This document shows positions 6,401 to 37,104 of a stretch of 64,000 nt of DNA, in pieces; position 1 is the stretch's first letter, and each line of letters starts with the position of its first letter. The notes below the pieces were generated by a model. It was not told the DNA's origin and ran no database searches. It saw only the letters and a program-made list of their open reading frames with translations. A program made the translations under genes and the position numbers. The stretch is from Schmidtea polychroa (taxonomy: Eukaryota), in contig CM097885.1 in the NCBI GenBank assembly GCA_044892525.1, positions 139,934,001 through 139,998,000 of the forward strand. Reading direction: 5' to 3'.

Positions 6401-7821
6401 TTGGCAGTGGAATTTCTCACCTCGAGCGCGATCTGATAGAGAATCTTTCGTTTTCTTTCATGAAGTCACGCCGAAGTTTCAGAGTAGATAATGTAAATTT
6501 CCAAAGTCGGAGACAATTTTTCGGATTGCGATCAGTAGTTCGTTGTTGTTAGGAAAACTTGCTTTTCCGTCGAATATTGATAGATGTCTGAGTAGGAATG
6601 GGCGATGAATTGTTAGAGTTTTCACTGGAAGATCTGCTAAGCACTTAAAAATTGAACCCCGAGAGGTACATTGCAGGGACATTAGCGAGTAAACCCATTC
6701 ATTGACTAATTTAGACTTTAGCTTGACATTGAATATCTGATAAAGTTTGGTTTGACGTTGACAGCGGCTCGTCTTAAATGGGAAAGTAAACAAATTTTTT
6801 GATAAGGAAATAAATCACTTGCCGTGAGTCCGAGTGAAGATATCAATAGCGATAGGAGAATCATTAGTTGCCCATGGCCAGATAAATTTCCGACGGGGAA
6901 AATCGGCTGATAATTTGATAAAGTCATCGAACGAGTTGATTGAGAAGGCGGCGGTCGATCGAATGTATTGAGTGGTCTTATCGTGAGTCGACCTAATATC
7001 GAAAATCCAGAATATAGAGTAATTTTTATCTACTGAATCCGCAAGTCACCCACACAATCGAATTTCTTGAGTTTTGGACACACCAACTGAGTACCCTTCA
7101 CAACTAGAGCATCTCTCTACAACTCTACCTCTATAAATCGCTCGCCCACATGTACACATGCATCACACTCAGATTAGGTCACAGTGCACATGTGGATATC
7201 ATCATTACCTAATCATAGGGAGAGAGTCGTACACTGATAACTGCTGGTAGACTACTGGATTGCGTCAGAGAACATGGCAATGCGACGAGAAATTTTTTTT
7301 TCTGTCAGTGTGCAAGTCGCTAGTTAAACGCACCAACATGCATCGTAACGAACCCATCGATAGTTGATGGTATAGATAGACAATCAAATGAACACATAAC
7401 TGCGCCCGATTTAAGCGTCACTATGACGATGTTTATGACGTTAAATTTGAAATAACAAATTTGTAATCCATGATAAAAATTTTAAGCGAGGGTATTATGA
7501 TTTTCTTACAAACCCGAGGGGTCTACATACAAGACGGGGTGTCCCGGTAATTGCCGATTTTCCGTTCATCATACAGCACGCGTAGAATCTAACGACGTAG
7601 CAGCAAAATGAGTAAAATATAATTGTTAAAATTTAACAACGATAATTAAGATAATAGCGTTCATAGTAACGAATTTACCGTTATGCCGTAGTTAAAAATA
7701 GTCAAACCCGTAAAGTAAACCTAAAAGCTAGCATAATGAATTGTTTTCATGAATCCCGTTTTCTTCTCATAAAGTAGTGATGATTACATGGGTCAGTTTA
7801 GATGTTTGAGATTGCATGAAG

Positions 7822-7963
7822 GTGAGTATTTGCCGACGGGGTAGATCGGTAGGCCACTCTTGGATAACTTGGTCGGGGAGGTCTTAAATTTCGTTTTCCG
7901 AACATATGAATAAGACCCCAGCGAATTTTTTTATTTAAAAATAAAAATTTCTTAACAATTTAG
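7822..7963 (+). other. Candidate 142-nt intron in the LTR preceding the LTR ORF
   Basis: Consensus donor AAG|GTGAGT at 7822. Branch-like TTAAC and acceptor TTTAG| lie directly before ATG 7964. The upstream ATG AAG (7816-7821) would join in frame. Confidence 0.55.
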
Positions 7964-8728
7964 ATGAATACTTCAACCAGTTCCGGGAAAACCCTCAGAC
8001 CTTGCTTTTCCTGTGCTGATAAAAATGCCGATATCGCACAGCTCCACTTGTACATCGGGGAATTGAAGAAGAGAATTGACCTCTATGAGGGAACGTGGTT
8101 CTCCCCACCACAAATGAAGGAGGAGAAGAGCAAGATTCTGCGTTTGGAGCACTGCCGTGACAGTCTCCTGGAAGAAAGCAGGTGCCAGAGGTTAACCATA
8201 AAGGCCCAATCAGAGGCACTGCACAAGGTGTATTCCGAATCAGAACTAGCGAAGCGAGTTCGCGAGTACCCGATACAAGATGGGACTAACGTGTTCCCAA
8301 TGCACCACAAATTAGCTGAAACCTCATCAATATCCAGTTGTAAAGGGCATGGCCCACAAATGCCGCCAATTCCCGCCCCAGTCCTTTCAGGCGATCGACC
8401 TATGGCTGGCGGTTCATCGGACCCTATCTTGGCTCCAGTACTCGTGCCACACCTCCTTCAGCCCCCAGCAGAAGCTACACTCCCCCATCGAAAGCGTAAG
8501 CGGCTGACGCGTTCTGAAAAAAATCAGAAGCGGAGGAATGCCATGGCCGCGCTCGAAGCATCGCTATCTGTAGCCACAGCAACTATCAAGGAAATTACAG
8601 TTACCCATTCCATTCCTACAAAGGAAGTATTCCGGGTAGTTCCGGCCGGTAGTATCAAATTCCTCGAAGACCGCCGGCTGCCCGTTGACATCGACGAGAT
8701 GCTCGCAGAGGGAGAAGCATTCTCGTAG
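7964..8728 (+). CDS. LTR-encoded 254-aa protein of unknown function (CxxC + coiled coil, Pro-rich linker, basic NLS-like HRKRKRLTRSEKNQKRR)
   Basis: Open, GC-richer ORF intact in both LTRs (one aa difference), with a diverged homologue at 1633-2205. Confidence 0.75.
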   Translation: MNTSTSSGKTLRPCFSCADKNADIAQLHLYIGELKKRIDLYEGTWFSPPQMKEEKSKILRLEHCRDSLLEESRCQRLTIKAQSEALHKVYSESELAKRVREYPIQDGTNVFPMHHKLAETSSISSCKGHGPQMPPIPAPVLSGDRPMAGGSSDPILAPVLVPHLLQPPAEATLPHRKRKRLTRSEKNQKRRNAMAALEASLSVATATIKEITVTHSIPTKEVFRVVPAGSIKFLEDRRLPVDIDEMLAEGEAFS

Positions 8729-9270
8729 CCAATTCTCTCTCGGGTCTCGATTCCCTGCTATTACGAACGAACTTGAAGAAGCGACGTTATCTCGTGACTA
8801 AACTTTAATGTTTTGCATTTACTTAAACAATGCTGAATGTAATTTGATGTTCCGTTCTAATATAACTGTTCGATTTTCTTTGATTGTGTTAATTGTATGT
8901 ATGATTTGCTACGGTTGAATTGCATGAGAGAAGGATCACGAATATATAGTAGAAACTTAAATGTCGTACCTTTTGGACCAGGGTCAGACTGAATGATGCG
9001 TATAGAATGGGTAAGACCTTCTAAGGCACCGTAGAACCCGAACCGAGAAAGGGTTAGGAGTAGTCCTAACGCAGGGGCTCACCTGCTAACTTTTTCCAAC
9101 CCGTGTGAGCAGTACCAACGTGGAACATCACCACGGGCTCATACGTGGGAATATGCGAACGATCATTTGGAGTGTGTGAGGGAATGGTCTGAGTAGAATA
9201 ATGATACCTGATGCGGATGATAATCATGCCCATACGTTTTCTTTTCCCCCACATACGCCAACATGATTTT

Positions 9271-9288
9271 TGGGGGCTCAGCCGGGAT
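9271..9288 (+). promoter_or_regulatory. E1 primer binding site, tRNA-Pro type
   Basis: TGGGGGCTCAGCCGGGAT, 7 nt after the LTR end. It resembles the complement of the tRNA-Pro 3' end (MuLV PBS TGGGGGCTCGTCCGGGAT). Confidence 0.85.
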
Positions 9289-9738
9289 GAATTCGATTTG
9301 TTGATTACCTATTATTGTGTTATGACGTGTTAGATTAACAATTTAATTAAGTATGATTAAAAAATGGAATCGGGACTGAAACGAATCGATATTGTAATAC
9401 AATAGAATGATGATACGAACTGAAAATAGAGCATGTATGAATAAAGATGAACCTAAATGAGTATGAATGTATATGATAAAGTATGATGAGAGAAGGAAAC
9501 GGGAATTAGTACTTTGTTTAATTTTAATTTATTAAATTAAAAAGGGGAGACAAAAGAAAATAATGACAATAAAATTAAATGATTAAAGTCAAAAATACGA
9601 CGGGGATTGTTAAAGACTAAATAAAATACGAAAGCTAGAAACAATAACAAATAAAAGAGAAACGAATATTAAATACAACGTAATAATATTATTGTTAATA
9701 CTAGTAAGAACAAATAATAACAACACATTCATTTAGAT

Positions 9739-10218
9739 ATGTCAGACGCTAGACAACATCTACAACAGCTAAGCCGGTTCGTCGAAATAGAAAATGATTC
9801 AATAAAAACATTAAGAGAAAAACTGAAACAAATAGAACTGCTAGAACAACAAAGCCACAACGCACCGCTGATATCCAAACAAAACTTTCTCACCGACAGA
9901 TTAGGATCAACAAATACCGATACCGACTTGTCGATTCATTACCAATGGTTTCAGCAACGTCTCGACGACCCAACGCTGAACATCGAATATGTGAGGATAC
10001 GCGAACGAGTCAAAACTCTGTCTCAGCGGATACGAACATCAATAGTAGAGAAAGCAGCGGCCTTGAGAACTTGTAACATTTGTAAGATGCGACCTGTCAA
10101 AATTCTGATTCTACCTTGTGGGCACCTTAGCCATTGTGACGAATGCGCCGCCAGTTTAATCCGGTGTTCTATGTGCACATGTGTAATAAAAGAGAAGCAC
10201 ACAATCTACTTCAGTTAG
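9739..10218 (+). CDS. 159-aa protein with C-terminal IAP/XIAP-type RING finger (putative E3 ligase); no BIR domain seen
   Basis: CNICKMRPVKILILPCGHLSHCDECAASLIRCSMCTCVIKEKHTIYFS* matches the spacing and the terminal hydrophobic tail of IAP RINGs. Confidence 0.85.
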   Translation: MSDARQHLQQLSRFVEIENDSIKTLREKLKQIELLEQQSHNAPLISKQNFLTDRLGSTNTDTDLSIHYQWFQQRLDDPTLNIEYVRIRERVKTLSQRIRTSIVEKAAALRTCNICKMRPVKILILPCGHLSHCDECAASLIRCSMCTCVIKEKHTIYFS

Positions 10219-10802
10219 GTACGTGATCGTCGCTCGGTGAGGGAAATTGGATGGTTGAACAATTAAACTAAAATATTTTAATTTTTTTTTGATTTGATTC
10301 ATTAATATTTTAATAATGGCATCATATATCATATGTAGCATGGACTGAATAATCAATAAATCATTTTTTTGTGTTTATTTCATTTTGCGAAGCTATAATT
10401 TGATCTGTTGTATCATAATTTTCACCATGAAGAAAGGGTATTTTAAAATTTAAATCGAGTACATAAAGTGGAGCTAGTCCCAACATAAGATTAAAGGGGG
10501 AATAAACCGAGCCACCTTCGGGAGGTACGATAGTTGAAAAACCGTTCGGGAGGGGATAACCGATCACCCCGAGTAAGAGATGTAAGGCGAGGTACCATCG
10601 CGAATATTGAAAAGTTTCTGCGGTATGGCTGATCACCATACCAATGCAGAAATGGATCAATGCGATCGTTTTGCGTTTTGAGCAAGGGGGGAAAGGGGAA
10701 ACCTTCCAAAGCGGTACAGATTAAGTCGACAAATAAAAGTAAAAATAGGAAGATGACAGTATAGAATAAAGACAGAAAAGGAACGGAAGCATGCAGAGTT
10801 TA

Positions 10803-11320
10803 GAGATATTAAGGCCGAGCTGTTGAAAAGTCCAGCCGGTCAGGAGAAATTGAAACTGAGCTGTGAAAAGTCCAGCCAGTCGGAGATATTAAGGCCGAGC
10901 TGTTGAAAAGTCCAGCCGGTCAGGAGAAATTGAAACTGAGCTGTGAAAAGTCCAGCCAGTCGGAGATATTAAGGCCGAGCTGTTGAAAAGTCCAGCCGGT
11001 CAGGAGAAATTGAAACTGAGCTGTGAAAAGTCCAGCCAGTCGGAGATATTAAGGCCGAGCTGTTGAAAAGTCCAGCCGGTCAGGAAAAATTAAAACTGAG
11101 CTGTGAAAAGTCCAGCCAGTCGGAGATATTAAGGCCGAGTTGTTGAATAGTCCAACCGGTCAGGAGAAGAAGATTGAGCTGTTGAAAAGTGCCAGCCAGT
11201 CGTAAGGCCGAGCTGTTGAAAAGTCCAGCCGGTCAAGAAAAATTAAAACTGAGCTGTGAAAAGTCCAGCCAGTTCGGAGATGAAGAAGATTGAGCTGTTG
11301 AAAAGTGCCAGCCAGTCGTA
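10803..11320 (+). repeat. 80-bp-period tandem array (dimer of ~40-bp subunits, ~13 copies of core GAGCTGT(T)GAAAAGT(G)CCAGCC(A/G)GTC) in the E1 leader
   Basis: GAGATATTAAGGCC recurs at 10803, 10883, 10963, 11043 and 11123, degenerating toward the 3' end. Confidence 0.95.
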
Positions 11321-11982
11321 AAGGCCTAAAGTAATAGTGAGATAGCATTCAAGCTACAAGTTGATAACATTTAAATTACTAGTGAAATGGAATATTAAAG
11401 CTAGCTAGAAGTAAAGTGAGTTTGAAATATGGTATTTGAATTTAGAAAGGATTAAACGAGCTCGTGGGAGGTAATAATGAAATTTTTTTCAGTGAGAAAG
11501 AGAAACTGAAAAGGAAAACGAATTAAAGAGATAATGAAAATAAAGAATAAGTGATGAGTAAAAGAGGAAGGTGATTAATTAATTAAAAGGGATCCCAGAT
11601 AAGTAGACAAAGTTCTACAGAATTTTTTTGGTTTAAACCGGTTAAACGAATTTTGTTTTGGGTACAGAGTAGAACCAAATAAGGGGAAACAGAGATGAAA
11701 GATTAAGTAAAATAGCGGAACCGCGTAAAAGGATTAAGAAAATATGGGAGGTAATAAGCAGTAACTGACAACGACCTATCGATATTATAAATGCTAACTA
11801 TAGATAATTTATACGACTATATAGATAATTGTTACTACCCCAAATAGATAATTTAAAATCGACGAAAAATATGGGTTGATGGGTAATTATATTCCGCGAA
11901 GAAGTATATGAGGGGAAATGAAGAGAAGTATAACAGAGGCCCTAAAACGGTGTCTGTGCTTGAATGTGGCAAAAAGGAATGA

Positions 11983-14900
11983 TTGATTCGTGTAAGCAAA
12001 GGCAACACGATATCATATTTTCATTGTAGACATCCATCCAACCAAGTCAATTCAGAACCAGCTCAAGAGGAATCCAGAGAATATACAAACAACCCAGGAA
12101 AAGCAATTCAGAACCCGCACAAAGGAAGACAATATCAAAACCGAACTCGACCAATTCAGCAGACGCTAACCGTAGAAAATCCACGTGAAAAGACAGAAAA
12201 GAGTAAAAGGAAAATCACGGATAAACCCAACCTTAGATCTTCAAGTAAGCCAGGAGACGTATTATTTTCAGGAGACGAATTAGATCAACTCAAAAGAGGA
12301 CGATCATTTAGGCAGCAGAGAGGAATATCACAAGGAGCAAAAAGACCCCACAAAACACCGATATACGATCAAGAAAACCCCACAGCCGGACATACGCCCA
12401 GCCGATCTAGAAGTAGAGAAAGTCTATCCGATATAACAAACAACCTAACCGGGTCAACAGAAGAATTATCCGTCCATAGCTTAGCCACATCGCTGGAAAA
12501 TTTAAAAGAAATAATAGAGTTTCAAGAACCAATCAAGATGAATGTGGTAAAAACCGACGAGTATAAGGAAAAATTTAGAGGCGAACCATTCAACGGGAAT
12601 GCGAACAAGTTGGCAACGTTCATAACCAATTTTGAAGTCTATATTGATGTGTGTGGATGGACATCCGAAGCAATTAGTAAACGAATGCCTCTGTTTTTGT
12701 GCGATAGCGCACTCGAAGTATATCTGGAAGCAAAAGAAAGAAATACGAAATTAGACAATTGGGAAAACATCAAAACATTTTTGAGAAAAACATTCGGAGC
12801 CAGCAAACCGATAAACCAAGCGTTAGGTGAACTGGCAAGTAGAAAACAAAGAGCAAACGAGTCAATTACGTTATACGCAAGTGAATTGCGAAGATTGGCA
12901 AAGAAGGCCATGAACGGAAACTTGCCGGAGGAAAACTTAATTGGGTACTTCATAGAAGGACTACGCCGAGAAGAGGTAAGGGCCTCGGTGGGATGTCAAA
13001 TGTGTAAAACACTAGAGGAAGCTATAGATTGGGCCACAAGATGCGAACTACACCTCCCAGCACAAATGAACGTCATGCAAGAGGAGGGAAGAATCGCAAC
13101 AGCAACGGTGAAAACGGAAAATGGGGATAACAATAATCATGAACCCAAGATGAATCAGTTTATACCAGGAGCACATCAAATTTTCAAACCACCACAAGGA
13201 CGATCAAACGGGAATAACAGTGAACGCAACAACTCGAACAATGGGAACAACTTTAATAATCGACGAAATATGAACGATAACAAACAATGCCGAACATGCG
13301 GTAAACCAGGACATTGGGATAGAGATTGTTACCGAAACGCAAATTGCAATAGGTGTGGACGACGAGGACACACGGAAAATATATGCCAATCAAGAGGATG
13401 TTTTAACTGCGGGCAACTAGGTCATATCTCAAGAGACTGTCGAGAAAGGAGCCAACAACAACGACCACCACAGCGAAATAATAACTATGCACCAAATCCG
13501 CAACGACAAAGTAATCCTAGTGAGGGAAAGCAAATGAATGTGATGCAAGAAATTTCACAAATGAAGCAGATGATGCAACAAATGATGAGACCGAGACAAG
13601 AGCAAGTACCACAACCAACCCAGAATATACGCATGATGAGAAGCACCGAGAATCTTAACAATTATGAAGTGCAACAACATGCACAAGAATGGCAAAGACT
13701 ACAAGCTGAAGAAGAAAGGATAAAAAGAGAGCGAATTCAGCAGCGACAAGAACAACCACTACGAATAAATATGATGAGGATGGTAAAGGAGATAAAGGAG
13801 CAATATTGCTACAATTACGGTAAAAATCCAAGAGTTGTACCTATGAGCGAACCAGAGAAACTGAAGGAAACAATTACAGCAGCACAAAAGGAAAATTCAA
13901 CAACACCGCTAAAAGGAAATCAGAGAATTCAGAAAATATTTTGGAAAAAGATAAAAGATAAAATCGAAAGAGAAAATGAGCAAACAAAAACAGAAGCAGA
14001 AGCAGAAAATAACGAAAATGAAAAACAGATTAATCATCTAAAGCATAATATGATACGAGAATTAGACTCAGAGGAGCTAACGATACTCGAGAACAACAAG
14101 TTAAAGAAAGTACCAAGAATGAGAAATTTACGAATTAATATGATGAGGACAACAAAGAAGGTGTTGTCAACAGATGACGATGAGGATTATGTGAGTAGCC
14201 TTGGTGGAGAAATGTTACAGTTAAATGAAAATATCGACCAACTGAGAGAAAAGATCGGAGCAGATGAGGATGAAAGAGAAAGCGACGTGACAAGCGAAAG
14301 CGAAGACGAGAATATCGAAATGAAATTGAGAAAAGAAAGAGAAGAAGCGATAAAACAAGTAAAGGAAATACTTCCAGTGGTGGTAAGAAACCAGGAATTC
14401 ATTGACATCATACCATACCGACGCTTCATACAAAAGATAATGAAACTAGAAAGAAACGAAAAAGACCTAATACCAAACGAGGAAAAAGTGATAATAAAGA
14501 AGTATATGGAAAAAATGAAACAAGCGGAGACAACACGCTATGTAATAAAAATCGGAACGAGTAAAGGACTCGAGAGAATATGGATAAAAAATGCAGTCAC
14601 AGACGAGCTTTTTGATTGGATAAGAGAACATTTGGGCAGCTCGAGAAAGAAAGAGTATTTATATCAACATCAAGGAGAACAAATTAAGCCAGACATGCAC
14701 CTAATAGATGCATTGATCTGGCCAGGAGAAACTCAAATATTGAAATTGTATAAAGAGAAACAACCAGCAAATATTCACGAATGGGCTAAAGACGCCAAGG
14801 CCGAGTACGATTTTAACATCAAGCTGAAGCTGGAACAAATAAAACAATGCACCTTGCGACGAAATCTAGATAAATTAATCAAGCAAATCCAAGAACAAGT

Positions 14901-23900: not shown

Positions 23901-26418
23901 TCACCTATTCGAAATTCCAAATCAACTACTACAACGTGGCATAAAATTCTCAAATCACAAAGACGAACAACTAATCAGAAAACGAATTACCAACTTCGAA
24001 AAAGCTATATCTCAATTTACCGATAAAGTACAAGTAAAATTTTGGGACACCGTGAGTGTTTTGCATATGATGGAAACTATGAACAACATTCGAGAAACTT
24101 ACCTAAGCATTATTCAAGTTCTAACGGCAGAGGAACGCATTAATAATTCGAACAAGAAAAAGATAAAAAGGAAGAAAGTAAAAGCAGGAGAGTCTGAGGA
24201 ACAAGTCGATCAACCAATAACCGATATAGCAACAACAAGTAAACCAAAGACAATAAACTCCGACCAAGAGATAGTAGTACGTAAGGCTAAAGAAGTATTC
24301 TTTGAAGAAATGCAAGATCTATCCGATGAAGCGATACTAGCAAAAATAACCAAAACAGTACACACCTACGCAAGAGATCAGACCACAAATCTAGACATAG
24401 GAAAAATAAAAACATTTATACCACTAGCATTCACCTTACCAACAAAAGACTCAAGAACACCATTACAACAAGCCATTTTAGCAGCAAAAGAGAACAGAGC
24501 AATAACCATCATAAGAATCCTCAGAGACTTCGGAGAAGAATCTAATGCAAAAAATGGACAAGGAGAAACAGCAATGATGTATGCAGCCATAACAAATATA
24601 CACCCGAAAACATTACATATACTACATCAATCAGGTTCGAGACTTGACGAAAGATCAAACGAAGGAAATTCTACCATGGATTGGGCAACAATACAACCAA
24701 ACTTGGAAATGATTAGATTCATTTGTAAAAATGCTACAAGAACTGAGGTAGAAAATATCTGTAAAAACACGTCACAGTTCCAATGGAACACGATACGGAT
24801 GAACTTAGAAGCCATGAAGTTGCTGCTAACATGGAGAATACCACAAAGCAATAAATATGCAATAAATATAAATGAGTTCTACGAAAACGGAGAAAATGCT
24901 ATGGTTAAAAATACACTAACAAAAGGAGGAACTCCGAAAATCATAATGATCGTATTAAACAGGGAAGATCTCAAATTCACGCAGAATCTAAACGAACAAA
25001 AGCGAATCGGGAAACATCGTCGGATACAATTAAGAGAATTAGTGAAAGAATGGAATAGAAAGAGACATGTAGCAACAGGCAGAAAGGAGTTCGAATTCGA
25101 AGCAAAATTAGCAAGAAACAGAGTGCTAACGGCATACCGCAGATTGTTGAATGATATAAATGTCGAGGACGACATTTTAAACGATAGCGGGGGAGATAAA
25201 GACGATAAAGACGATAAAGACGACAATAATAATGAAAAAGGTCGAAACGGGAATAAAGAGAAAGAGAAATCAGAGGAGAATAATCAAGAAAATAACGACG
25301 CGAGTAGGAAAAAAGAGGAAAATAACCCGAGAAACCGAATGAAGCAAGAAGAAAAGACGAATAGTGGAAAACAGAGGGTATGCCTACTTTTTACCAACAA
25401 AGAAATGGAGACAAATATGATGATAATGATACTCGTACTAACAATGGTGGAAATGATAACAGCCCAGGGAGGAATGAGAACGATAAAAGAAGCCAAAGAA
25501 ACGGAAAATAAGGACAACAAAGAGGAAGAACTAAAACAAGAAAAGAAAAAACAAGTACAAGAGCAGCAATGGGATCTAAAAGAAGAATGGGATTTAAAAG
25601 AAAGGTGTATATTAGGAAGATGTATGTCTAGAGCTTATCAGAGACTAGTGTTAAAAAATGAAGATGCAGAACCAATAACGGAAGTAAGAATACAAGAAGC
25701 ATACCGAAATCGAGAAGGAAAGAGAATAACGAAAGTTAAAGGGAAGGAAGTACACCTGGGAAAAGGAGGTGAGGTAGTGATAACGCAACTCCAGCCAAGA
25801 AAAGAACACAAAGTCTGCATCGCAAGATTAAGACCGGGTGAAGACTGTCTACAATATGTAATACAGCAACAACCTCCAAAAGAATACACAATATGCATCT
25901 GGAGAAAAGATACAGCGAGAGAATGTCGACGATACCCTGGGAAAAGAGGGAAGAAAAGAAAAATCGATGATGAAAAAGATGAGCAAGGAAAACGCAAGAA
26001 AACCAGTGAGAAACATCAAGACAATTATGTATCCGAAGAGGAGATGGAGAAAATACAAAAAATGGCAAAGGAAGGTATGAACGAGGAAATAGCAAGAATA
26101 CGAGGAATGATGAAAGGAAATGACAAAGACGGTAATCTAAAAAGCACAGAAGCAATATCAACAATAACGAGCAAGGAAGAAGCGGAAATTATAAGCATAA
26201 AACAGATGATGTGGATCAGCGGCATAATAATAACAGGGGCCTTTTTAATCATAACGGGGGGGACAATAAAAATAATCAAAGATAGACGGCATCACGGAGA
26301 ACTAGAAATGGCCAGAATAAGAAATTTCCAACATCGTGTAAAACGACCAAGTAATATCAAGCAGGAACAGTGGGTGGAGGCCTGGAATGCTCAGCGCCCT
26401 CCAAGCTCACGTATATAG
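11983..26418 (+). CDS. gag-pol: E1 single polyprotein (~4,811 codons open; first ATG 12538): Gag-Ubl x3-AT-hook-Bcl-2-like-glycoprotein-PR-RT-RH-IN-ANK-FN3/TM
   Basis: Three CCHC knuckles (13288-13440), protease IDTGA (~19768), RT YIDD (20989-21000), RNase H TDASG (~21433), integrase HHCC, DDE core and GPY motif (22080-23110). No internal stop. Confidence 0.97.
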   Translation: MIRVSKGNTISYFHCRHPSNQVNSEPAQEESREYTNNPGKAIQNPHKGRQYQNRTRPIQQTLTVENPREKTEKSKRKITDKPNLRSSSKPGDVLFSGDELDQLKRGRSFRQQRGISQGAKRPHKTPIYDQENPTAGHTPSRSRSRESLSDITNNLTGSTEELSVHSLATSLENLKEIIEFQEPIKMNVVKTDEYKEKFRGEPFNGNANKLATFITNFEVYIDVCGWTSEAISKRMPLFLCDSALEVYLEAKERNTKLDNWENIKTFLRKTFGASKPINQALGELASRKQRANESITLYASELRRLAKKAMNGNLPEENLIGYFIEGLRREEVRASVGCQMCKTLEEAIDWATRCELHLPAQMNVMQEEGRIATATVKTENGDNNNHEPKMNQFIPGAHQIFKPPQGRSNGNNSERNNSNNGNNFNNRRNMNDNKQCRTCGKPGHWDRDCYRNANCNRCGRRGHTENICQSRGCFNCGQLGHISRDCRERSQQQRPPQRNNNYAPNPQRQSNPSEGKQMNVMQEISQMKQMMQQMMRPRQEQVPQPTQNIRMMRSTENLNNYEVQQHAQEWQRLQAEEERIKRERIQQRQEQPLRINMMRMVKEIKEQYCYNYGKNPRVVPMSEPEKLKETITAAQKENSTTPLKGNQRIQKIFWKKIKDKIERENEQTKTEAEAENNENEKQINHLKHNMIRELDSEELTILENNKLKKVPRMRNLRINMMRTTKKVLSTDDDEDYVSSLGGEMLQLNENIDQLREKIGADEDERESDVTSESEDENIEMKLRKEREEAIKQVKEILPVVVRNQEFIDIIPYRRFIQKIMKLERNEKDLIPNEEKVIIKKYMEKMKQAETTRYVIKIGTSKGLERIWIKNAVTDELFDWIREHLGSSRKKEYLYQHQGEQIKPDMHLIDALIWPGETQILKLYKEKQPANIHEWAKDAKAEYDFNIKLKLEQIKQCTLRRNLDKLIKQIQEQVEDNWDLLITRRTADMHELLSRLRDTELLRMSDWRTINLIHKYGRLKETQPQKLEITIWLPNEEKRRIKMSNQSTVDDLVTKINQEITEKVQSESSDGMIDDVVMMYDKIILRAEDDTSLSEMGMWDNHQIIRILPMDEFRTRDITYQKEIRDRMKTLYQKSVEIIEIHQQWLKEKGLQGKIKKLSVRSCRRTPWERTWNAENKEWEIRKGIFVETDIGEIESESEEEEDEPPKYEEDEIESTSDDESETDVTSESETETRHIHAMRKKEREYADMDSEEAMEAREREEKERYKQLGDILATGTKNQKRQVIALANIILKTSENIHNLREMAKAIEEYRQYNEWYPEQLEQIIRKWRNQEWAQDTQERYRIRVKYPDKSIEDTEVHPTTKIRELKKKLAYETPFHLQLFGKSLDDNADVGITPMRLGEINVLTMAETLGKPIKRKNKSSKPTKGSLSTPSPNKVASKTNETEEIEEIILEDSDEGAGERSPILVRWPTGAEIWTTSQPSTSYQQPNKLSIEEIIDNTTETETDEQFQRQKGLTKATPEGQTDKIIDEWNEWLRNNDSSLPRTDNERNPNYENTREAGTMMEKRAKGRPKKQGEKPEFKTREQLKQEQGQVRLEKLDKIVWDLKEAQPTIERGEKWIRELVKDMLIITNPQLRRLWQRKVASVDARQLWNTISGIIPKLIKEKTKTTKTDWEETRRVIEQLTLNANDDEHHLVVLTYLMYNLMGLAARKIPNKQFANHVEMTVTIIENTIEPHIIRAGGWKRLIQAPRKNEQERSMQIRLKKLLNELEWELPLKDPASRKASINSLMMTMMIWMLCTSGAAGFTIYDCDNSIIGERYSLRDIEECRQASPNKLDIVKKKVSYHVYQESDFIRTQARECVVSKKVLAYYCGQYSYSTLILPGLDKEIVPIQREDCKELFRTGAMRIRDGVTIHGQSGMIKTESIYVAGRVKSTDGSCNGGTYTIRGEVISGVVVIESYTVELKEYEAQFDANNYQMKTNPACRATENVCRTGISTIIYEANTQKCRLQLLKSALFNEVKGEIYENEDDDEENGNVRMRNGKPVPPSPKEKRLTTQKTPTALITDDPDIGMRFIREKETTKCDSIVYRTNYAGIYMSRQVIDRAVGKVATEDVKLYLYANNKMDFLFHRGQTTMQKVYYDLIQNDCSLNKEILKTKLAIAITHPDNTMPSLPLPDGHFGRMVGEVMYTYACTKTFARLPRKPTIPPGKCANELEISYKGRNRFVQPVTRIMNPIGFYPNTFNCSNAYGPLYEKPDGKWIMLPVKTEVQEPKKFGLIELATEQDFKPIDVSKAGMYSPEDLETARLNVLFPARRESILSNMVTITGGTNFQSGPNYELLLSPDHFQQATSNMMKAMWGRFLVFGQMMAGILGIILIIQIVRVILTQMLACFDIYKREKKVNWKLIVGFLPFLAKTMVLHGHSKDIHRIKRLIKILTKIKGTDEEVGRRFRKTMYDEATRTQLKKNKPKFLDRFRNRSNSSDSDDDDNGNDKYPYPSRNPNEKPIETAPYWEKEKTNTWIANGSYIPPDIVGQQTALTMTQNMYPQLPSQPGMNYMPTRRTKSVDQADDVRTIAVMSSPGGAAVTVMIQINGKETSAMIDTGANVSAIAINQIPSKCWKDIEQTTIHIIACSKETVDVVGRWWTTLRYQDNEIETYLAVIPKLSEPCIIGTDLMPELFKEVVIDLTTMCLKDKMGRICKMNAIIRCPEKIIVPAKSQMICQIKVDAGMEGEVIFEPSKSFEKRRELPLAREIITINEDGEIPINITNFEEEDKIIYENERLGRLTPMIDIELPKIINETTKADELWIIDSTLLTEKEKERLQQLLIEYKDIFAISDLDLGACDVTLHAIPLIDETPIALRPYKLAEKQKEIAEVEVQKMLDAQVIEPSCSPWQFPVVMVKKKDGTQRFCIDYRKLNAVTKRDTYPLPDINEMLLMLQGAAYFTSLDLKSGYWQIKVKEEDKEKTAFTLGRDLYQFRKMPFGLTNAPASFQRCMNFVTHGIKQCMVYIDDLLIYSATFEQHLEDIRNVFVRLRQWKLKLKPSKCDWAKEKVTFLGHIVSAKGKEPDPRNIEKIKTCPAPKTVTQVQEFLGLCGYYRKFIKNYAGIAKPIQELVKKDISFIWGAEQQKAFETLRDKLIEAPILVHPDFKKPFLLATDASGYAAGAILGQLDEEGKERVIGYYSRTFKKHEKNYSVTEREALAIIQAIKHFRYLLWGHEICITTDHQPLVWLGQHKEASSRLMRWAMQLQEYSPFIKFKAGRANANADCMSRFIFPDLVDHEMQRICLMVAEDLDFCQLRKDQQEDTELKQIIEYVKTGKAEVYEKDQKLKEHMDKHRHRYIIEKDWLLIMDGEKRLMCIPENRRKDLLTQYHDGRLGGHMSSKKTLARMKQKYFWPTLTEDVAEWVKNCITCATRKNTGTKWKAPLKPMPVPAEPMTMISMDVVGPLPESDRGNIYILVITDYLTKFPEAFATADQKARTIAKILVEEICCRYGTPKQILTDQGTNFMSEIMSEVTNYFKIAKLRTSPYHPQTNGMTERFNGTLIQMLSNYVDRHQRDWDEYIKLCLMAYRMSIHASTKMSPFKLMYGRECNMPMDLEYQPPISQYMEIDDYVTKFKERMQEIWETAGLNIKFYQESYKELHDRKKNVKQHTFQTGEWVMIETPELIPGTTKKLQRNGKGPYEILFVGETNVRVRLVNNPFTRPIYVNVARCKPIPKTATSQPEGRTLTTRSQTYRINMLQQINEPTGNRLGLQPSEAEKIIKEVKVKMPGWAEDRLDFEILGGLLTMIENYANRERTHPLLRVVKSQWPILFTITDHYGDTPLHKLLKVGSNEQILETIEAFRDCNISTDQENNQGYTPLMIAANRDKAKDIIIALLETGSKITTQDHNQENALHHAIEGKSTEAFIILVDLLSYEDNREIGNMYDGLLTAIKEKLTTIAGILIAWRNPIKNDYMVDINETFTKGENTLMREAMRGHHLFEIPNQLLQRGIKFSNHKDEQLIRKRITNFEKAISQFTDKVQVKFWDTVSVLHMMETMNNIRETYLSIIQVLTAEERINNSNKKKIKRKKVKAGESEEQVDQPITDIATTSKPKTINSDQEIVVRKAKEVFFEEMQDLSDEAILAKITKTVHTYARDQTTNLDIGKIKTFIPLAFTLPTKDSRTPLQQAILAAKENRAITIIRILRDFGEESNAKNGQGETAMMYAAITNIHPKTLHILHQSGSRLDERSNEGNSTMDWATIQPNLEMIRFICKNATRTEVENICKNTSQFQWNTIRMNLEAMKLLLTWRIPQSNKYAININEFYENGENAMVKNTLTKGGTPKIIMIVLNREDLKFTQNLNEQKRIGKHRRIQLRELVKEWNRKRHVATGRKEFEFEAKLARNRVLTAYRRLLNDINVEDDILNDSGGDKDDKDDKDDNNNEKGRNGNKEKEKSEENNQENNDASRKKEENNPRNRMKQEEKTNSGKQRVCLLFTNKEMETNMMIMILVLTMVEMITAQGGMRTIKEAKETENKDNKEEELKQEKKKQVQEQQWDLKEEWDLKERCILGRCMSRAYQRLVLKNEDAEPITEVRIQEAYRNREGKRITKVKGKEVHLGKGGEVVITQLQPRKEHKVCIARLRPGEDCLQYVIQQQPPKEYTICIWRKDTARECRRYPGKRGKKRKIDDEKDEQGKRKKTSEKHQDNYVSEEEMEKIQKMAKEGMNEEIARIRGMMKGNDKDGNLKSTEAISTITSKEEAEIISIKQMMWISGIIITGAFLIITGGTIKIIKDRRHHGELEMARIRNFQHRVKRPSNIKQEQWVEAWNAQRPPSSRI
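14530..16200 (+). other. Three ubiquitin-like (beta-grasp) domains in the E1 polyprotein (~14530-14760, ~15052-15306, ~16000-16200)
   Basis: For example RYRIRVKYPDKSIEDTEVHPTTKIRELKKKL...HLQLFGKSLDDNADVG and LEITIWLPNEEKRRIKMSNQSTVDDLVTKI...DDTSLSEMGM follow the ubiquitin strand-strand-helix pattern. Confidence 0.6.
16672..17230 (+). other. AT-hook (KRAKGRPKK) followed by a Bcl-2-like domain in E1
   Basis: The BH2-like IIENTIEPHIIRAGGWKRL parallels Bcl-xL YLNDHLEPWIQENGGW, preceded by a hydrophobic alpha5-like helix HLVVLTYLMY. Confidence 0.7.
17341..19230 (+). other. env: Signal peptide + chuvirus(Jingchuvirales)-type glycoprotein ectodomain + TM in E1
   Basis: FTIYDC...YSLRDIEEC, CDSIVYRTNY, YANNKMDFLF...NDCSLNKEILKTKLAIA, GRMVGEVMYTYAC, CANELEI, GMYSPEDLETARLNVLFPA and TM ~19051-19140 match the Cys/motif pattern of chuvirus glycoproteins. 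Confidence 0.8.
23419..24960 (+). other. Two blocks of ankyrin repeats after the E1 integrase
   Basis: GDTPLH, GYTPLMIAA and QENALHHA in block 1; SRTPLQQA, GETAMMYAA and GNSTMDWA in block 2. Confidence 0.9.
25405..26418 (+). other. C-terminal type I membrane module of E1: signal peptide, FN3-like ectodomain, TM, short tail
   Basis: SP METNMMIMILVLTMVEMITAQ, FN3-like VVITQLQPRKEHKVCI, TM MMWISGIIITGAFLIITGGTIKII. Confidence 0.65.
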
Positions 26419-26586
26419 AAAGGATTATGACTGTATATAGATTGTAAAAAGTAAGTAGGAAATATTTATTTATATAACAGTATTCTATATTTTTATATAA
26501 GCGCGGTATCAATAGTATATAATGATGGGGATAATTAATATGAAAATAAAATTAGATAAGGATTGAAAAGTATATATAAATTAAGA

Positions 26587-26946
26587 ATGGAGCGAATAGG
26601 CGAGGAAGTAAACCACAGTACAACAACCGAGGAGATGTGGAAACAACAATGTGCAATGTTAACTCAAGTGATTTCGAATTTACAGGAACAAGGACTCGCT
26701 GTACAAAGAAGCTTAGTCGAAAGTTTAAATAAAGGCTTCAATTATGTAAGAATAATCGAAGACCAACGAATAAAAATAGAACAAATGCAGCGAGAGATAG
26801 ACCGAATATCACGATACAGCCAGGTGCAAGAAGAGGAGTTAATAAGAATCGCGGAAGAGATGGAGCGAGAGGAGATAGAAGACTGGTCAGAATGGTTAAC
26901 CAACAGGGAAGAGGGCGGACAAGAGGCCGACTCTTCCAGCCAATAA
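26587..26946 (+). CDS. Accessory coiled-coil protein (~119 aa from the first ATG)
   Basis: Purine-rich ORF with heptad-like pattern between AT-rich spacers. The ORF track starts it at a TTG (26563). Confidence 0.6.
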   Translation: MERIGEEVNHSTTTEEMWKQQCAMLTQVISNLQEQGLAVQRSLVESLNKGFNYVRIIEDQRIKIEQMQREIDRISRYSQVQEEELIRIAEEMEREEIEDWSEWLTNREEGGQEADSSSQ

Positions 26947-27035
26947 ATATAACCTAACATAGCAATGTAAATAAATGTAAATAAAAATACGAAACTGTAC
27001 CTGTAACGAATATATGTATATATATAATTATAGAA

Positions 27036-28424
27036 ATGGATAAGCGACAACGAGAAGAATTCAGAGAAATTGTTGAACAAATCAGAAAGTCCACCACAAT
27101 TCGAATACACAACCATGTAACGTGTGGAATATGCAAGAGTTTATTAAGAGAACCTCACCAAACCAGATGTGGATGCAGAATGTGCAGAGAATGTGTAGAG
27201 GAGATAATAAAGAAGGGACCACAATGGTGCCCAGTATGCAAAGAAACAATGATAACAAGTTTGGGAGATACAAACGAAGATAAAGCAGCTGTAAAAGATA
27301 TGTTGAACGCAAACCTAGGATGTAAAAACACCCCATGTAATTGGCGAGGAGGGATATGGGAAGTGAGGCAACATATGGAGCAATGTGAGTATAAAATCAG
27401 TCAATGCAAACGTTGCCAAGAAGAGATTAAAGTCAATGAAGAAGCAGAACATCAAAGTCGATGCGAAGAAAGACTAGAGAAATGCGAGTATTGCGGAGAA
27501 AACGACACCTGGAAGAAACTAATCAGTCAACATCACAACATACAAGAGGAGAAAGTGTGCGCAGAATTCAGAGGAGAATGCCCCAACAAATGCGATAAAC
27601 CCGGAGTAATAAAACTCGCTCAACACCTAAAAGAGTGTGAAAGAAAAAAGATAACGTGTGTGCTAGGAAAATGGGGATGTCCGAAACAATTACACCGAGG
27701 GGAATTACCCCAACATCTAGCAGAAAACGTATCAACACACGCGGAAATATGGTCAACGGTATTACAGGAAAACGAAAGGAAAACCGAAAACTTAGAAAGA
27801 GAAATAGTCTCGCTAAAAGCGTTGGTAAAAGAACTATTGGAAGAAAAGGAAGCATTCGAAGAGGCGAGAACAAGTACAAAGATACAGACAGATCTAGTAG
27901 AAACTAGCAACATTATGGTGAAAGAACTACATCAAAAAGTAAGCGAATTAAACCTCAACGAATTAATACCTACGGCTCCGTACATATGGAAAATAACGGG
28001 AGTAAAAGAGAAGATGCAGAGAGCGAGAAATGGAAAGGATACAACATTACTAAGTCCAGCATTCTACTCATGGAAAAACGGGTATAAAATGAAAATGAAA
28101 GCATACCCCAATGGGGATGGAAGTGCATACGGAACGCATTTCTCAGTATTCTTCTTGATGTGCAAAGGGCCATACGACGAGTTAATAGAATGGCCATTCA
28201 AAGCAAAAATAGACCTCGCAATGATGAACTATCAAAGTATACACGAACAGAGTTTCCATACAGCGGGAAACCTCGTATGTTACCAAAGGCCCTTGGAGGA
28301 AGAAGGACCAGCAACTGGAGCACCAAATTTCATCCTACAGCGGAAAGTAGAAGACATGACGAGAAACGACACTATATACATGAAAATAGCGGTGAGGCGA
28401 GACGGGAAGAGTAGGACGGAGTAG
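27036..28424 (+). CDS. Full-length intronless TRAF homologue (RING, TRAF zinc fingers, coiled coil, MATH), 462 aa
   Basis: RING CGICKSLLREPHQTRCGCRMCRECV...CPVC; fingers CKNTPCNW..H..QC, CEYC and CPNKC; MATH YIWKI...SPAFYS...GYKM...YPNGDG...THFSVF...WPF. Confidence 0.95.
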   Translation: MDKRQREEFREIVEQIRKSTTIRIHNHVTCGICKSLLREPHQTRCGCRMCRECVEEIIKKGPQWCPVCKETMITSLGDTNEDKAAVKDMLNANLGCKNTPCNWRGGIWEVRQHMEQCEYKISQCKRCQEEIKVNEEAEHQSRCEERLEKCEYCGENDTWKKLISQHHNIQEEKVCAEFRGECPNKCDKPGVIKLAQHLKECERKKITCVLGKWGCPKQLHRGELPQHLAENVSTHAEIWSTVLQENERKTENLEREIVSLKALVKELLEEKEAFEEARTSTKIQTDLVETSNIMVKELHQKVSELNLNELIPTAPYIWKITGVKEKMQRARNGKDTTLLSPAFYSWKNGYKMKMKAYPNGDGSAYGTHFSVFFLMCKGPYDELIEWPFKAKIDLAMMNYQSIHEQSFHTAGNLVCYQRPLEEEGPATGAPNFILQRKVEDMTRNDTIYMKIAVRRDGKSRTE

Positions 28425-28641
28425 AGAGACGAATAATTTTGTATATACTAATTGTAAATATCGGCGTATATATCCAGTAAAATATTATATAGTAGTGTAG
28501 AAAATTCCCCCAAATCTACCAAAGGTAAACTTAAGCGAAAACTCCTAAAACAACTCCTATAACGAATTATAAAAATAAATAAATAATAAACCAGATATAA
28601 GCGTACAACGTTAAGTTAATGATATCGTTATTTAGACAAAG

Positions 28642-29679
28642 ATGACACAAGAAGGAACTGAAGCCCCAAACCATGAAACCAAAGTCAATAAAATCCATAA
28701 GGGAAAATGGGTCAAAGTAATGTTACAATTGACGAACCAGACCCACAACCATCTCGAAGAGGCCAGGGAATACGAGAATAACAAATATCAGTGGTTAATA
28801 AACAATTTAAGAGCCGAAGCAGAAGCATGCAAAAGAGCCTCTAAGTGGGCATCATTGGAAAACACTCGCCAAGAAGCGCACAGCCACTATTTAAAACAGT
28901 TAGTGCAGGAAGCACGGAAACGATTGACGGACGAAAACACAAAACGAGAAGCAGAAAAACAAAAGGAAGGAAGGAAAATGAATCACCTATTGGCAGAAGC
29001 CCGAAACTGGAAGCGGCAGAACAAAGAGATGAAAAAAGAAATGAAAGAATTGCCTATGAGATTAGAATACGAAAGCGAACAAGGCAAATGGGAGGAAAAT
29101 CTGGTCATAAGAGAAGAACTGAAACGGCTCAGAAAGATTGCGGCCCGAAGCCAAACATGGCAGACCAAAGCCATGGAATTTGAAAGACATCTAGCCATGA
29201 AAATCTCCATAAGGGAGCACGAGAATGCCACAATGGAAGAACTGATACTTCAACAGTCAGGACGACTCGTGGAACTGGTGAATAAGGTCGCAGAACTAGA
29301 ACGAGATGTCAACGGATACCAAGGAGCTCTGGAGCAGAGAAATATGGTACTGGCGGGGAAAAACAAAAAGTTAGAAAACGAAAGGAAAATGTACAACGAA
29401 AATCTTAAAAATCTGGAGATAGAGATCAAGAAATGGGAAAACGGCGAAAAAGCGGAAGAGCTAGAAAAACAGATAGAGGTAAGAGACGATGAAACCAGGT
29501 ATCTAACATACCTGTTGGACGAGGAACTTAACGTGTCAAGAGCACTAAGAGACGAAGTGCAAGAACTTAGAGCGCAGATTCCCCGATACTACATCCCATT
29601 TGATCCCATCGCACTCCAATTACAAACGTCAGTAGAAAGCGATGAGGGATATGTAGGCCAGGAAGAGACCTTTGTATAA
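28642..29679 (+). CDS. Accessory long coiled-coil protein, 345 aa
   Basis: Intact E/K/R/L-rich heptad ORF flanked by AT-rich spacers. Confidence 0.8.
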   Translation: MTQEGTEAPNHETKVNKIHKGKWVKVMLQLTNQTHNHLEEAREYENNKYQWLINNLRAEAEACKRASKWASLENTRQEAHSHYLKQLVQEARKRLTDENTKREAEKQKEGRKMNHLLAEARNWKRQNKEMKKEMKELPMRLEYESEQGKWEENLVIREELKRLRKIAARSQTWQTKAMEFERHLAMKISIREHENATMEELILQQSGRLVELVNKVAELERDVNGYQGALEQRNMVLAGKNKKLENERKMYNENLKNLEIEIKKWENGEKAEELEKQIEVRDDETRYLTYLLDEELNVSRALRDEVQELRAQIPRYYIPFDPIALQLQTSVESDEGYVGQEETFV

Positions 29680-29852
29680 AGATAAAAGGAAAGATAAAAA
29701 ATATAAAAATCGGGACCTGTATCCCAACCAAAAAATTAATGGTACAGTAAAAGTATGAAAGGGACTGTAACCCTGACTATAAAATAACATATAAATGTAT
29801 AAGTATAAGCCGCACTGTAGCGCAATTATTAATTATGTATATATTATAGAAA

Positions 29853-30554
29853 ATGAACACTGAAAACGGACAACCCAGCATAACATCTATAATCGAGTTA
29901 GAAGAGGGAGAAATTGAAGTTGATGAAGTGGAGAGGAAGAAAACTATCAAGGAAGAATTACAAGAAGAGAGACAGGAAAACGAAAGATTAGTTGAAAGAT
30001 GGAGAGATAATCGAAAAATGATTAAAGTATTGAAAAGAGAATATATCTTGTTAGAAGGAATAAAGAAAGAAGTAGAGGAAGAAAACGAATGGCTTCACGA
30101 GCAAAGAAAGCGAGGGAGAAATTGGGAAAAGATCGCGGAAGAATTATGGCAGGAGAGGGCCAGTCGAAAGGCCGACGAAGTGATTAGTGACTATTGGAAA
30201 ACCGAGGCACGGAAACACCAAGAAAGCCTGAAAGAGTTACAACTCCAACTACACCAAAAACAGAAAGAATGTGAGATAATGAGACGAATGAACAACAAAT
30301 ACCAGGAAATAGACAACGAAGAGGACGGGGAAAGGGAAAATGATTTTCTACAGATAATGAACCATAGAAACCTCGAAAGAGCAACACAAGAAATAAAAGC
30401 ACTAAAAGGAAAAATAATAACCCTAAGGCAACAGTTAGACGAAAGAGACAAACAATTAAAAGTACTACCCGAATTGAGAAAACGAGTAATAAAAGCGGAA
30501 ACGAGAGTGATGAGAACATCCGAGAAAACCCGTAAAAAGAAAACCCGGCAATAA
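29853..30554 (+). CDS. Accessory coiled-coil protein, 233 aa
   Basis: Intact E/K/R-rich heptad ORF with an acceptor-like TTATAG just before the ATG. Confidence 0.75.
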   Translation: MNTENGQPSITSIIELEEGEIEVDEVERKKTIKEELQEERQENERLVERWRDNRKMIKVLKREYILLEGIKKEVEEENEWLHEQRKRGRNWEKIAEELWQERASRKADEVISDYWKTEARKHQESLKELQLQLHQKQKECEIMRRMNNKYQEIDNEEDGERENDFLQIMNHRNLERATQEIKALKGKIITLRQQLDERDKQLKVLPELRKRVIKAETRVMRTSEKTRKKKTRQ

Positions 30555-30609
30555 TTAAAGATGAATGATCAATGTAAATAATTGTAAATAAAAATTTTCG
30601 TATAGTAGT

Positions 30610-31236
30610 ATGTGGTTCGGAGTAACCCTGGTGACAATAATGATGATAGCGATAAACGGGATACCCATGTGGCAGCCAATCCCAACATTCTGGGAGAATC
30701 CCGAGAAACAGCAAAACCCTTTAACCAAACTAAAAAGCGAGAGAAAGCTCTCCAACAACATCCCGAAACAATGCTGGAACAAAGTCGTCTGGGAAAAACT
30801 TCAAATGCAACTCCACCTACAAACCCAAAAAATCGAACAGCTCGAAATTCTCTTACAAGAACAAACCACCCAACAATCCTTGAAGGAAATCATCATGAAG
30901 AAGGAAGTAAAAGAAAGCCAAGTCTTACTCTATACTACCATCAGTGAAACCCTTATCATCTGCGCACTAGTCATCTGGAAAGCGTATGATATTCATCGAA
31001 CATGGAGAAGAAACCAGTCACTATCCGAGAAACAAGAAAGAAAGAACCCACGATCGAAAAATAAACATAAACGAGCAGTACATTTTCAACAACCAAACCC
31101 ACCCGACCAAATGCAACAAAATCTATCTCCTGACCAAATGCCTGTTACAATCCAGCTCCCCACGATAACAACTTCAACCAGCCATCCGACCCAGAATTCA
31201 ACCAACCAAGACATTCCGAACCTTGAGATCATGTGA
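30610..31236 (+). CDS. Accessory type I membrane protein, 208 aa (SP, coiled-coil ectodomain, TM, P/Q/T-rich tail)
   Basis: SP MWFGVTLVTIMMIAING, TM VLLYTTISETLIICALVIW, basic stop-transfer residues follow. Confidence 0.75.
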   Translation: MWFGVTLVTIMMIAINGIPMWQPIPTFWENPEKQQNPLTKLKSERKLSNNIPKQCWNKVVWEKLQMQLHLQTQKIEQLEILLQEQTTQQSLKEIIMKKEVKESQVLLYTTISETLIICALVIWKAYDIHRTWRRNQSLSEKQERKNPRSKNKHKRAVHFQQPNPPDQMQQNLSPDQMPVTIQLPTITTSTSHPTQNSTNQDIPNLEIM

Positions 31237-31433
31237 CATCGACCATTCATAAACTTATTGTGTATAAATCCGGTCACCTAAAGTGGCCACTGCTTGCTTA
31301 TATTTGTCCTTTTATCTGTTTGATTAAAGTATTATTTAGTTATTTTAATTTTATGTTTGTGTGAATGTTGACCGTGAAATTAGTTGTTATGCCGAAAAAA
31401 GGTATGAGTTAAACGTATGATATTATGTGAATT

Positions 31434-31467
31434 GCGGGGCGCAATTTTAACGGGCCCCGGAGTGATT
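31434..31467 (+). promoter_or_regulatory. E1 PPT-equivalent region (atypical, GC hairpin)
   Basis: GCGGGGCGCAATTTTAACGGGCCCCGGAGTGATT directly before the 3' LTR. It resembles the E2 pre-LTR GCGGACATTATCTTAACGGCCCAGGGAGGAA. Confidence 0.5.
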
Positions 31468-35657: not shown

Positions 35658-36036
35658 CGACCAATACCCATAGGGGGACAAAATATCTTGTCAGATAAAC
35701 TCTGATTATATATAATAATAATAATGTCTTCGTTAATTGCAATGTCAGTGTTAAAATTGGGGTAGGGAAAACACGCTCAATTAGTTTGATATAGTTTTAA
35801 AAATTTGAAACTTTGAGGGGATAACGCTGACCTTAAAAAATATGACCTTGACATTAAAAATTGACCTTAAAATTTTGACCTTGACCTTTTCTTCTTTTTA
35901 GGGTTTTGAAAACTTGTTATAGTTTTTCTTTTTATTATTTACAAGTTTAAATATTTTGTAAAACGTATAGCTAGCTACGTCCTACCAGGATTTTCCATGG
36001 GATCCACTAAAATTTATTTAGTAAAATTTAAGTTAA

Positions 36037-37084: not shown

Positions 37085-37086
37085 TT

Positions 37087-37104
37087 TGGTGCCGCGAACC
37101 GGGA
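37087..37104 (+). promoter_or_regulatory. E2 primer binding site, most like tRNA-Phe
   Basis: TGGTGCCGCGAACCGGGA, 2 nt after the LTR. The vertebrate Phe PBS is TGGTGCCGAAACCCGGGA. The assignment needs the host tRNA set. Confidence 0.7.

Follow-up and report, generated by a model that had tools for sequence, protein, structure and literature searches.

Predicted splicing from a common LTR leader in a giant Burro-type gypsy element of Schmidtea polychroa

Introduction

Planarian genomes carry the giant gypsy-like long terminal repeat (LTR) retrotransposons Burro and GYPSM1 (PMC6431247; here and below, articles are cited from extracts of their text). The Burro1 cargo B-IAP has been reported to protect planarian stem cells (as cited in PMC13465017), and Burro elements are the largest LTR retrotransposons known. 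Here we analyze how the genes of a Burro-type element, E1, may be expressed. E1 lies in a 64,000-nucleotide stretch of Schmidtea polychroa DNA (assembly GCA_044892525.1, contig CM097885.1, positions 139,934,001 to 139,998,000 of the forward strand); this stretch is referred to as the window, and all coordinates are counted from its first letter. We propose, with a probability of about 0.75, that exon 1 of the 5' LTR (5624-5650) would be joined in cis to alternative acceptors as a common leader, giving each gene its own mRNA. The DNA contains conserved acceptor-like sites, a promoter-exon-donor layout, an intron whose tail copies the exon and, in a sister family, an exon-end A that fits a gene beginning with TG.

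One promoter, one leader donor and many alternative acceptors are used by HIV-1, HTLV-1, foamy viruses and the adenovirus major late unit. Complex retroviruses express their accessory genes from subgenomic mRNAs, and in the genomic RNA most splice sites have to be left unused. Among gypsy elements, the closest precedent for an accessory RNA that is spliced, in part to a spliced leader (SL), is Cer1 of C. elegans, a host that uses SLs; its accessory protein is made from a spliced subgenomic RNA, while a long RNA skips consensus sites (PMC3315495). Nematodes and flatworms also have SL operons, in which tandem genes lie ~100 nt apart with an acceptor near the ATG (PMC8629364). We found no account of the splicing of Burro accessory open reading frames (ORFs) in literature that did not extend to the 2026 Dev Cell Burro1 paper, Grohme 2018, Rossi 2014 and supplements, which may bear on novelty; the string “splic” is absent from the extracted main text of PMC8532177.

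Results

Identity and organization of E1

E1 is a young, multi-copy gypsy element. It is 30.6 kb long, its two LTRs (~4.19 kb each) are 99.9% identical, and genome matches to its TRAF region indicate at least 40 copies at 97-100% identity. The eight ORFs comprise the LTR ORF, the RING ORF, the polyprotein and then five ORFs that include TRAF (Table 1). The primer-binding site is, we presume, of the tRNA-Pro type. E1 shares with Burro a length above 30 kb, long LTRs (4-5 kb in Burro), ankyrin repeats, TRAF/MATH and accessory ORFs, and its polyprotein of 4626 aa agrees with the ~4600-5100 aa described for Burro, with env in frame between gag and protease-reverse transcriptase (RT)-RNase H-integrase (PMC6431247). 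Burro1 has BIR-RING (B-IAP), with MATH in the polyprotein, whereas E1 has a separate downstream TRAF ORF and no BIR in any ORF (Pfam). On these sequence features we class E1 as a Burro-type element of a related family, distinct from Burro1.

Family searches of the same genome recovered a sister family with the gene order of E1, MATH within the polyprotein and BIR-RING on an ORF of its own, features by which we class it as Burro1-like. Its LTR carries two ORFs, the second of which is related to the E1 LTR ORF.

Table 1. Features of E1 and E2 in the window. A slash within a motif marks the predicted exon boundary.
Feature	Position	Strand	Details
E1, Burro-type giant env-bearing gypsy element	5074..35657	+	TG...CA ends; 4-bp target duplication CGAC; LTR pair
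E1 5' LTR	5074..9263	+	twin LTR at 31468-35657
Predicted LTR promoter	5578..5600	+	ATTGG (CCAAT) box 5578-5582, TATA box from 5594; kept in 12/12 other E1-family LTRs; function inferred from motifs
Predicted exon 1, 27-nt AUG-free leader	5624..5650	+	starts 30 nt after TATA, ends CAG
Predicted intron 1, 50 nt	5651..5700	+	donor CAG/GTAAA at 5651, acceptor CAG at 5700
Candidate donor AAG/GTGAGTAT at 7822, probably secondary	7819..7829	+	would give a 142-nt intron to 7963; GTG kept in 16/16, GTGAGT in 4/16
LTR ORF with acceptor TTTAG (7963)	7950..8728	+	254 aa, basic stretch, no Pfam family
Primer-binding site	9271..9288	+	assigned by sequence; sister family shares the same start
RING ORF with acceptor TTTAG (9736)	9725..10218	+	159 aa; followed by AATAAA and a T/GT-rich tract at 10355
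Candidate polyprotein acceptor TTGTAG (12029) and 508-nt ATG-free, non-coding leader	12015..12537	+	
Polyprotein, 4626 aa	12538..26418	+	Gag, mononegavirus-type fusion glycoprotein, protease, RT, RNase H, integrase, ankyrin repeats (Pfam)
168-nt spacer with TGTATATA (26432), acceptor TTAAG (26585); ORF 26587	26419..26946	+	119 aa
89-nt spacer with three TGTAHATA, acceptor TTATAG (27033); TRAF ORF	26947..28424	+	462 aa
217-nt spacer with two TGTAHATA, acceptor TTTAG (28635); ORF 28642	28425..29679	+	345 aa
173-nt spacer with one TGTATATA, acceptor TTATAG (29849); ORF 29853	29680..30554	+	233 aa
55-nt spacer with two TGTAAATA, tandem acceptors TATAG and TAG (30605, 30608); ORF 30610	30555..31236	+	208 aa
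E2, separate env-bearing gypsy element	36035..49548	+	13.5 kb; candidate acceptors 37322 (gag, uncertain) and 46549 (ORF3)

Predicted promoter, exon 1 and intron 1

The CCAAT box, the TATA box, the exon at +30 and the donor CAG/GTAAA are found together in 13/13 E1-family LTRs, which belong to two types with different exon sequences. The distance from the TATA box to the exon is 30 nt in 12/12 other E1-family LTRs, and the donor at 5651 lies 57 nt downstream of the TATA box. The last 28 nt of intron 1 are an exact copy of 5623-5650. The intron tail matches its own exon in each copy, run-length changes included; the match is exact over at least 25 nt in 12 of the 13 LTRs and shows a one-base length difference in the other. 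Such a promoter-exon-self-copy structure was found neither on the minus strand of E1 nor in E2 or the host flanks. The repeated segment runs from 30 nt downstream of the TATA box up to the donor, a layout that would follow if strong-stop DNA from spliced RNA were placed on the tail of the unspliced 3' copy. We consider 5651 the likely main donor.

Acceptor-like sites before the E1 genes

An acceptor-like signal precedes the E1 genes and is real, beyond chance. The earlier note on this DNA had described a splice-acceptor signature before nearly every ORF, and every motif that it quoted is in the window where it had been placed. In E1 these are TTTAG/ATG (7964), TTTAG/AT ATG (9739), TTATAG/AA ATG (27036), TTTAG/ACAAAG ATG (28642), TTATAG/AAA ATG (29853) and GTATAG/TAGT ATG (30610); also present are CTATAG/G ATG (37324, gag of E2), AG at 12029 and 46549, and AAG/GTGAGT at 7822. 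The comparison of TAG frequency with background that the note had suggested places E1 well above chance. TAG lies 0-6 nt before the ATG in 6/8 E1 ORFs, compared with a mean of 1.01 when the same 40-nt upstream stretches were shuffled (1/20000 shuffles reach 6), and 8.4% of 693 ATGs in the host flanks are preceded in this way. For T[AT]TAG, which also occurs before 6/8 ORFs, the shuffle mean is 0.28 and 0/20000 shuffles reach 6. The two ORFs with no close TAG are ORF 26587 (TTAAG/A ATG, an AAG site that the earlier note had not listed) and the polyprotein, for which the candidate at 12029 is 508 nt upstream.

The sister family is the fairer test, because the interval of 0-6 nt was picked after the E1 copy of the window had been inspected. 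In this family TAG precedes 7/9 starts against a shuffle mean of 1.4 (0/20000 shuffles); one of the nine starts was taken from copy L028 as the first ATG after AG, and copy L024 has an in-frame ATG six codons higher. Matching accessory proteins of E1 and the sister family are 27-33% identical, their upstream 24 nt match at only 8-11 places (six pairs), and the spacers are unalignable.

TAG is replaced by CAG in three separate E1-family copies, where the YAG is kept and the stop codon is lost: at the LTR ORF (1/16 other elements), at the RING ORF (1/8 copies) and at ORF 28642 (TTCAG in copy L040). These swaps imply that the sites behave as YAG 3' splice sites and not as stop codons. The second LTR type has TTTTCTAG/ATG before an LTR ORF that is 72% identical, and a diverged subfamily retains TTATAG/AC ATG before ORF 29853. 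T occupies position -5 in 16/18 sites (partly picked by eye), compared with 33.5% of 1426 host sites, and position -4 is free.

A predicted start codon divided between exons in the sister family

The second LTR gene of the sister family begins with YAG/TG in 11/11 loci (nine elements), 2.2-4.3 kb downstream of the donor. Its coding conservation starts at the AG, with third-position changes in 25-28 of 43 codons and first- and second-position changes in 4-10 (four distant pairs); 4/8 copies examined lack any ATG over 44 codons. A GTRRG donor is located 74-86 nt after a conserved TATA box in 13/14 LTR loci. The exon that it ends has A as its last base in 13/13, compared with 21/59 in the host background; in 10/13 the reading frame from the ATG within the exon stays open in phase 1. 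The exon-end A followed by TG gives ATG in the conserved frame, so cis-splicing would make the start codon of the second LTR gene, past another acceptor. The last three bases of flatworm SLs are AUG (PMC12582326), and an SL therefore cannot open this phase-1 YAG/TG gene. A protein search with the second LTR gene, aimed at the spliced N-terminus, found nothing.

In Burro1-like LTRs (L021:6910-7956, L051, L055 and L056) AATAAA and a GT-rich tract lie between the two ORFs. The first ORF ends in RGRPRK, a motif that we take to be AT-hook-like.

Polyprotein leader, spacers and Pumilio-type elements

The 508-nt leader of the polyprotein is ATG-free in 8/8 E1 copies and one base shorter in 3/8; two of the ten 5' loci in the copy comparison have no RING or Gag match. 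Between 5701 and the polyprotein start there are 131 ATGs. In the sister family the acceptor is 499 nt upstream of the polyprotein and the leader is again ATG-free (0 vs 4.3 expected; 3/2000 shuffles). The 185 open codons before the polyprotein ATG of E1 were considered as coding sequence and rejected, as the frame is lost in 3/8 copies.

All nine TGTAHATA on the E1 plus strand fall within the five downstream spacers, which total 702 nt (shuffle mean 0.69; 0/1000 shuffles), and the sister family has seven in 5/6 spacers (copies L023, L024 and L028). The first TGTAHATA lies 14-20 nt after the upstream stop in 4/5 E1 spacers and 5/6 sister-family spacers. This motif was picked out post hoc. As RNA it reads UGUAHAUA, the Pumilio motif, and planarian stem cells need a Pumilio homologue (PMC5580656); the elements after the stops are putative Pumilio-type sites. 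An interpretation of UGUA as a CFIm poly(A) element was rejected, as UGUA is reported to be absent upstream of planarian poly(A) signals (PMC5068929). AATAAA occurs in 4/5 E1 spacers and 6/7 sister-family spacers; enrichment was rejected, since the counts (7 vs 5.6 and 8 vs 6.5 in shuffles) are not above shuffles.

Other features of E1, E2 and related loci

Between the RING ORF and the polyprotein acceptor of E1 is an 80-nt tandem repeat of about six copies (10803-11321). The minus strand of the E1 LTR has an 82-aa ORF (region 5893-6141 / 6100-6200), and a candidate hairpin, GGGGAGGTCTTA ... TAAGACCCC (7870-7925), is located between the 7822 donor and the LTR ORF. One E1-type internal region is paired with two LTR types, either 94% alike or 75% alike over 1.3 kb with an unalignable middle (L039-L050); the LTR ORFs of the two types are 72% identical. 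The pairing of two LTR types with one internal region suggests LTR swapping.

For E2, AG is present at gag and at 46549, as the earlier note had reported; these sites are weaker than those of E1, and relatives differ before gag. One relative has CTATAAG/ATG before gag. The 46549 site is 139 nt before the first in-frame ATG (46689), and a distant relative has TTTCAG/TA ATG before the same ORF3. At 37252-37323, directly before the first gag ATG and in frame with it, a YNLR peptide is kept in E2 and in the distant env-bearing relatives L003, L007, L010 and L036, hinting at a possible upstream start. The E2 LTR has a TATA-like box near 36727 and a candidate donor, AAG/GTAAAT, at 36793, ~66 nt later, the same geometry as in E1. 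The gag and env-pol of E2 are in different frames with a short gap (39009-39044), and relatives L003, L010 and L018 have one long ORF; the start of pol gives a Bcl-2-like match. The env-family relatives, smaller single-ORF elements, were set aside as outgroups only.

A host Smad exon (MH2 domain) lies in the flank on the minus strand (59660-60271). Intronless TRAF loci were rejected as further Burro families, being host-like genes. Three stretches beside L024 contained no element, and L098-L100 is another E1 copy. Genome-wide, most of the best 150 MATH matches and 149 of the best 150 BIR matches appear to be Burro1-like family copies, and host TRAF and IAP gene counts may be inflated by them.

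Discussion

Proposed expression of E1

Transcription would start near 5624, and introns of 2.3 to 25 kb would be removed from 5651 to the acceptors at 7963, 9736, 12029, 26585, 27033, 28635, 29849 and 30605. Since the leader has no AUG, a gene start is possible in any frame, and each gene would begin 0-6 nt past its own acceptor. The Gag-Env-Pol polyprotein would be read from a spliced RNA without the primer-binding site. The packaged genome would lose only the 50-nt intron 1, and the tail of this intron would be rewritten from exon 1 at reverse transcription, so that the intron survives. The TGTAHATA elements just past the stops may act as Pumilio-type sites controlling each mRNA.

E1 resembles complex retroviruses and adenovirus in having a conserved donor just downstream of the predicted promoter and an acceptor before each downstream gene. 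It differs from complex retroviruses in that the predicted leader is only 27 nt long and upstream of the primer-binding site, the introns would reach 25 kb, and Gag-Env-Pol itself seems to need a spliced mRNA; E1 is also a gypsy element with a mononegavirus-type fusion protein. In Cer1 a single spliced RNA is produced, either with SL1 or without it, and the Gag-Pol RNA stays unspliced (PMC3315495), whereas for E1 eight acceptors and a first exon of its own are predicted. The tandem genes, short spacers and acceptors near the ATG are as in SL operons, from which E1 differs by the conserved upstream cis donor at 5651, and the YAG/TG of the sister family misfits a leader ending in AUG.

Alternative explanations

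The earlier note had one LTR donor, at 7822, feeding many subgenomic mRNAs; a single LTR donor is supported at the DNA level, with 5651 as the more likely site. The consensus AAG/GTGAGT that the note saw at 7822 is present in this copy, where no site matches U1 better (it shares first place on the E1 plus strand; 23/500 local shuffles reach it), scored against what we take to be the U1 consensus. It also lies within the predicted transcript, with G at +1 in 47/47 LTR matches. Outside this copy the motif is poorly conserved: among 16 other elements it reads GTGAGT in 4, GTGAGC in 2, GTGAAT in 5, GTGGGT in 2 and GTGGTT in 3, so that GTG is constant and positions +4 to +8 are hypervariable, more than the surroundings. 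No donor beyond chance was found within 600 nt of the first ORF acceptor in nine other LTR loci, and an exon from 5701 to 7821 would contain 48 upstream ATGs. A search for spliced genomic copies (exon end followed by a non-G base) gave 0, compared with 47 LTR matches with G; like searches at the sister-family site and for a changed base before the BIR ORF gave 0 each and had no positive controls of their own. It is very unlikely that 7822 is the single major donor for all downstream acceptors; it is probably a secondary, optional donor. Its poor conservation would suit an operon-like arrangement, also raised in the earlier note, in which cleavage at poly(A) sites in the spacers would divide one long transcript and trans-splicing would add the host SL at each acceptor. 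SL trans-splicing occurs in planarians (PMC10899757), Cer1 has an SL1-trans-spliced subgenomic RNA (PMC3315495), and the E1 spacers of 55-217 nt, with AATAAA in four of the five, compare well with the ~100-nt operon spacers of Macrostomum (PMC8629364). Spacer size remains in favor of an operon; the arrangement fits worse on other counts and seems unlikely to us. A conserved cis donor lies upstream of the E1 acceptors, and the sister-family YAG/TG gene requires A as the last base of its leader. At only 7/15 close sites would an AUG at the end of the leader share the frame of the ATG, and AATAAA shows no enrichment in spacers over shuffles.

An internal promoter for each accessory gene, or stop-restart translation, would make TAG a start-site or stop-codon pattern. 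TAG is an in-frame stop in 3/6 E1 cases, TATA-like runs occur in the spacers, and TGTAHATA lies at a fixed distance from the upstream stop. The threefold replacement of TAG by CAG, the out-of-frame TAG in the other 3/6 cases and the sister-family gene, in which the coding sequence becomes conserved right at an AG, without an ATG, make this highly improbable. Chance in AT-rich spacers could be argued from the post hoc choice of the 0-6 nt interval and from the frequency of plain AG before ATG (29-46% in backgrounds), but the shuffles in E1 and the replication in the sister family leave it close to refuted.

Several points weigh against splicing from a common leader. No spliced RNA was seen. Four contig runs over 25500-31800 (two guessed to be RNA, mostly 88-95% alike; two of unspecified kind) cover a stretch that has no donor and carry no weight either way; among the matches listed there is no joint or loose end at its five acceptors, and some contigs are unspliced across acceptors. 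Direct DNA signs of cis-splicing are limited to intron 1 in E1 and one LTR gene in the sister family, and the joins to six internal acceptors are extrapolated. To make the longest join, seven preceding acceptors would have to be passed over, along with possible poly(A) signals, for example the one at 10355; short spacers with acceptors close to the ATG also suit SL operons. The ATG-free leader of the E1 polyprotein is not significant alone (0 vs 0.98; 527/2000 shuffles). The exon-1 copy could instead come from local duplication and gene conversion, and a self-copying first intron was rejected for the sister family, whose LTRs have no such copy, so the renewal step is not general. The 13 A-ending exons of that family are related (seven LTR types) and are not 13 independent events; in 3/13 the ATG within the exon lies in another phase or runs into a stop. 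No AG occurs within 6 nt in ORF L091:290, a decayed relative.

Implications

A wider picture, tentative and on balance doubtful as a whole, is that of a late-adenovirus-like unit. In it an LTR mini-exon of 27-50 nt would be the element's own spliced leader over up to 25 kb, with a spliced, non-packageable Gag-Env-Pol mRNA, a self-renewing intron 1, an A/TG start in one family, and Pumilio sites that would tie the mRNAs to the stem-cell translational programme. For splicing from the common leader, the expression of six to eight tandem genes from one LTR gains exact predicted junctions, with the donor moved from 7822 to 5651, and the analysis tells cis-splicing and SL use apart in a group of hosts where both occur. 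If this reading is true, cargo genes could be made without production of the replicating genome, and host-beneficial cargo and transposition could be controlled apart.

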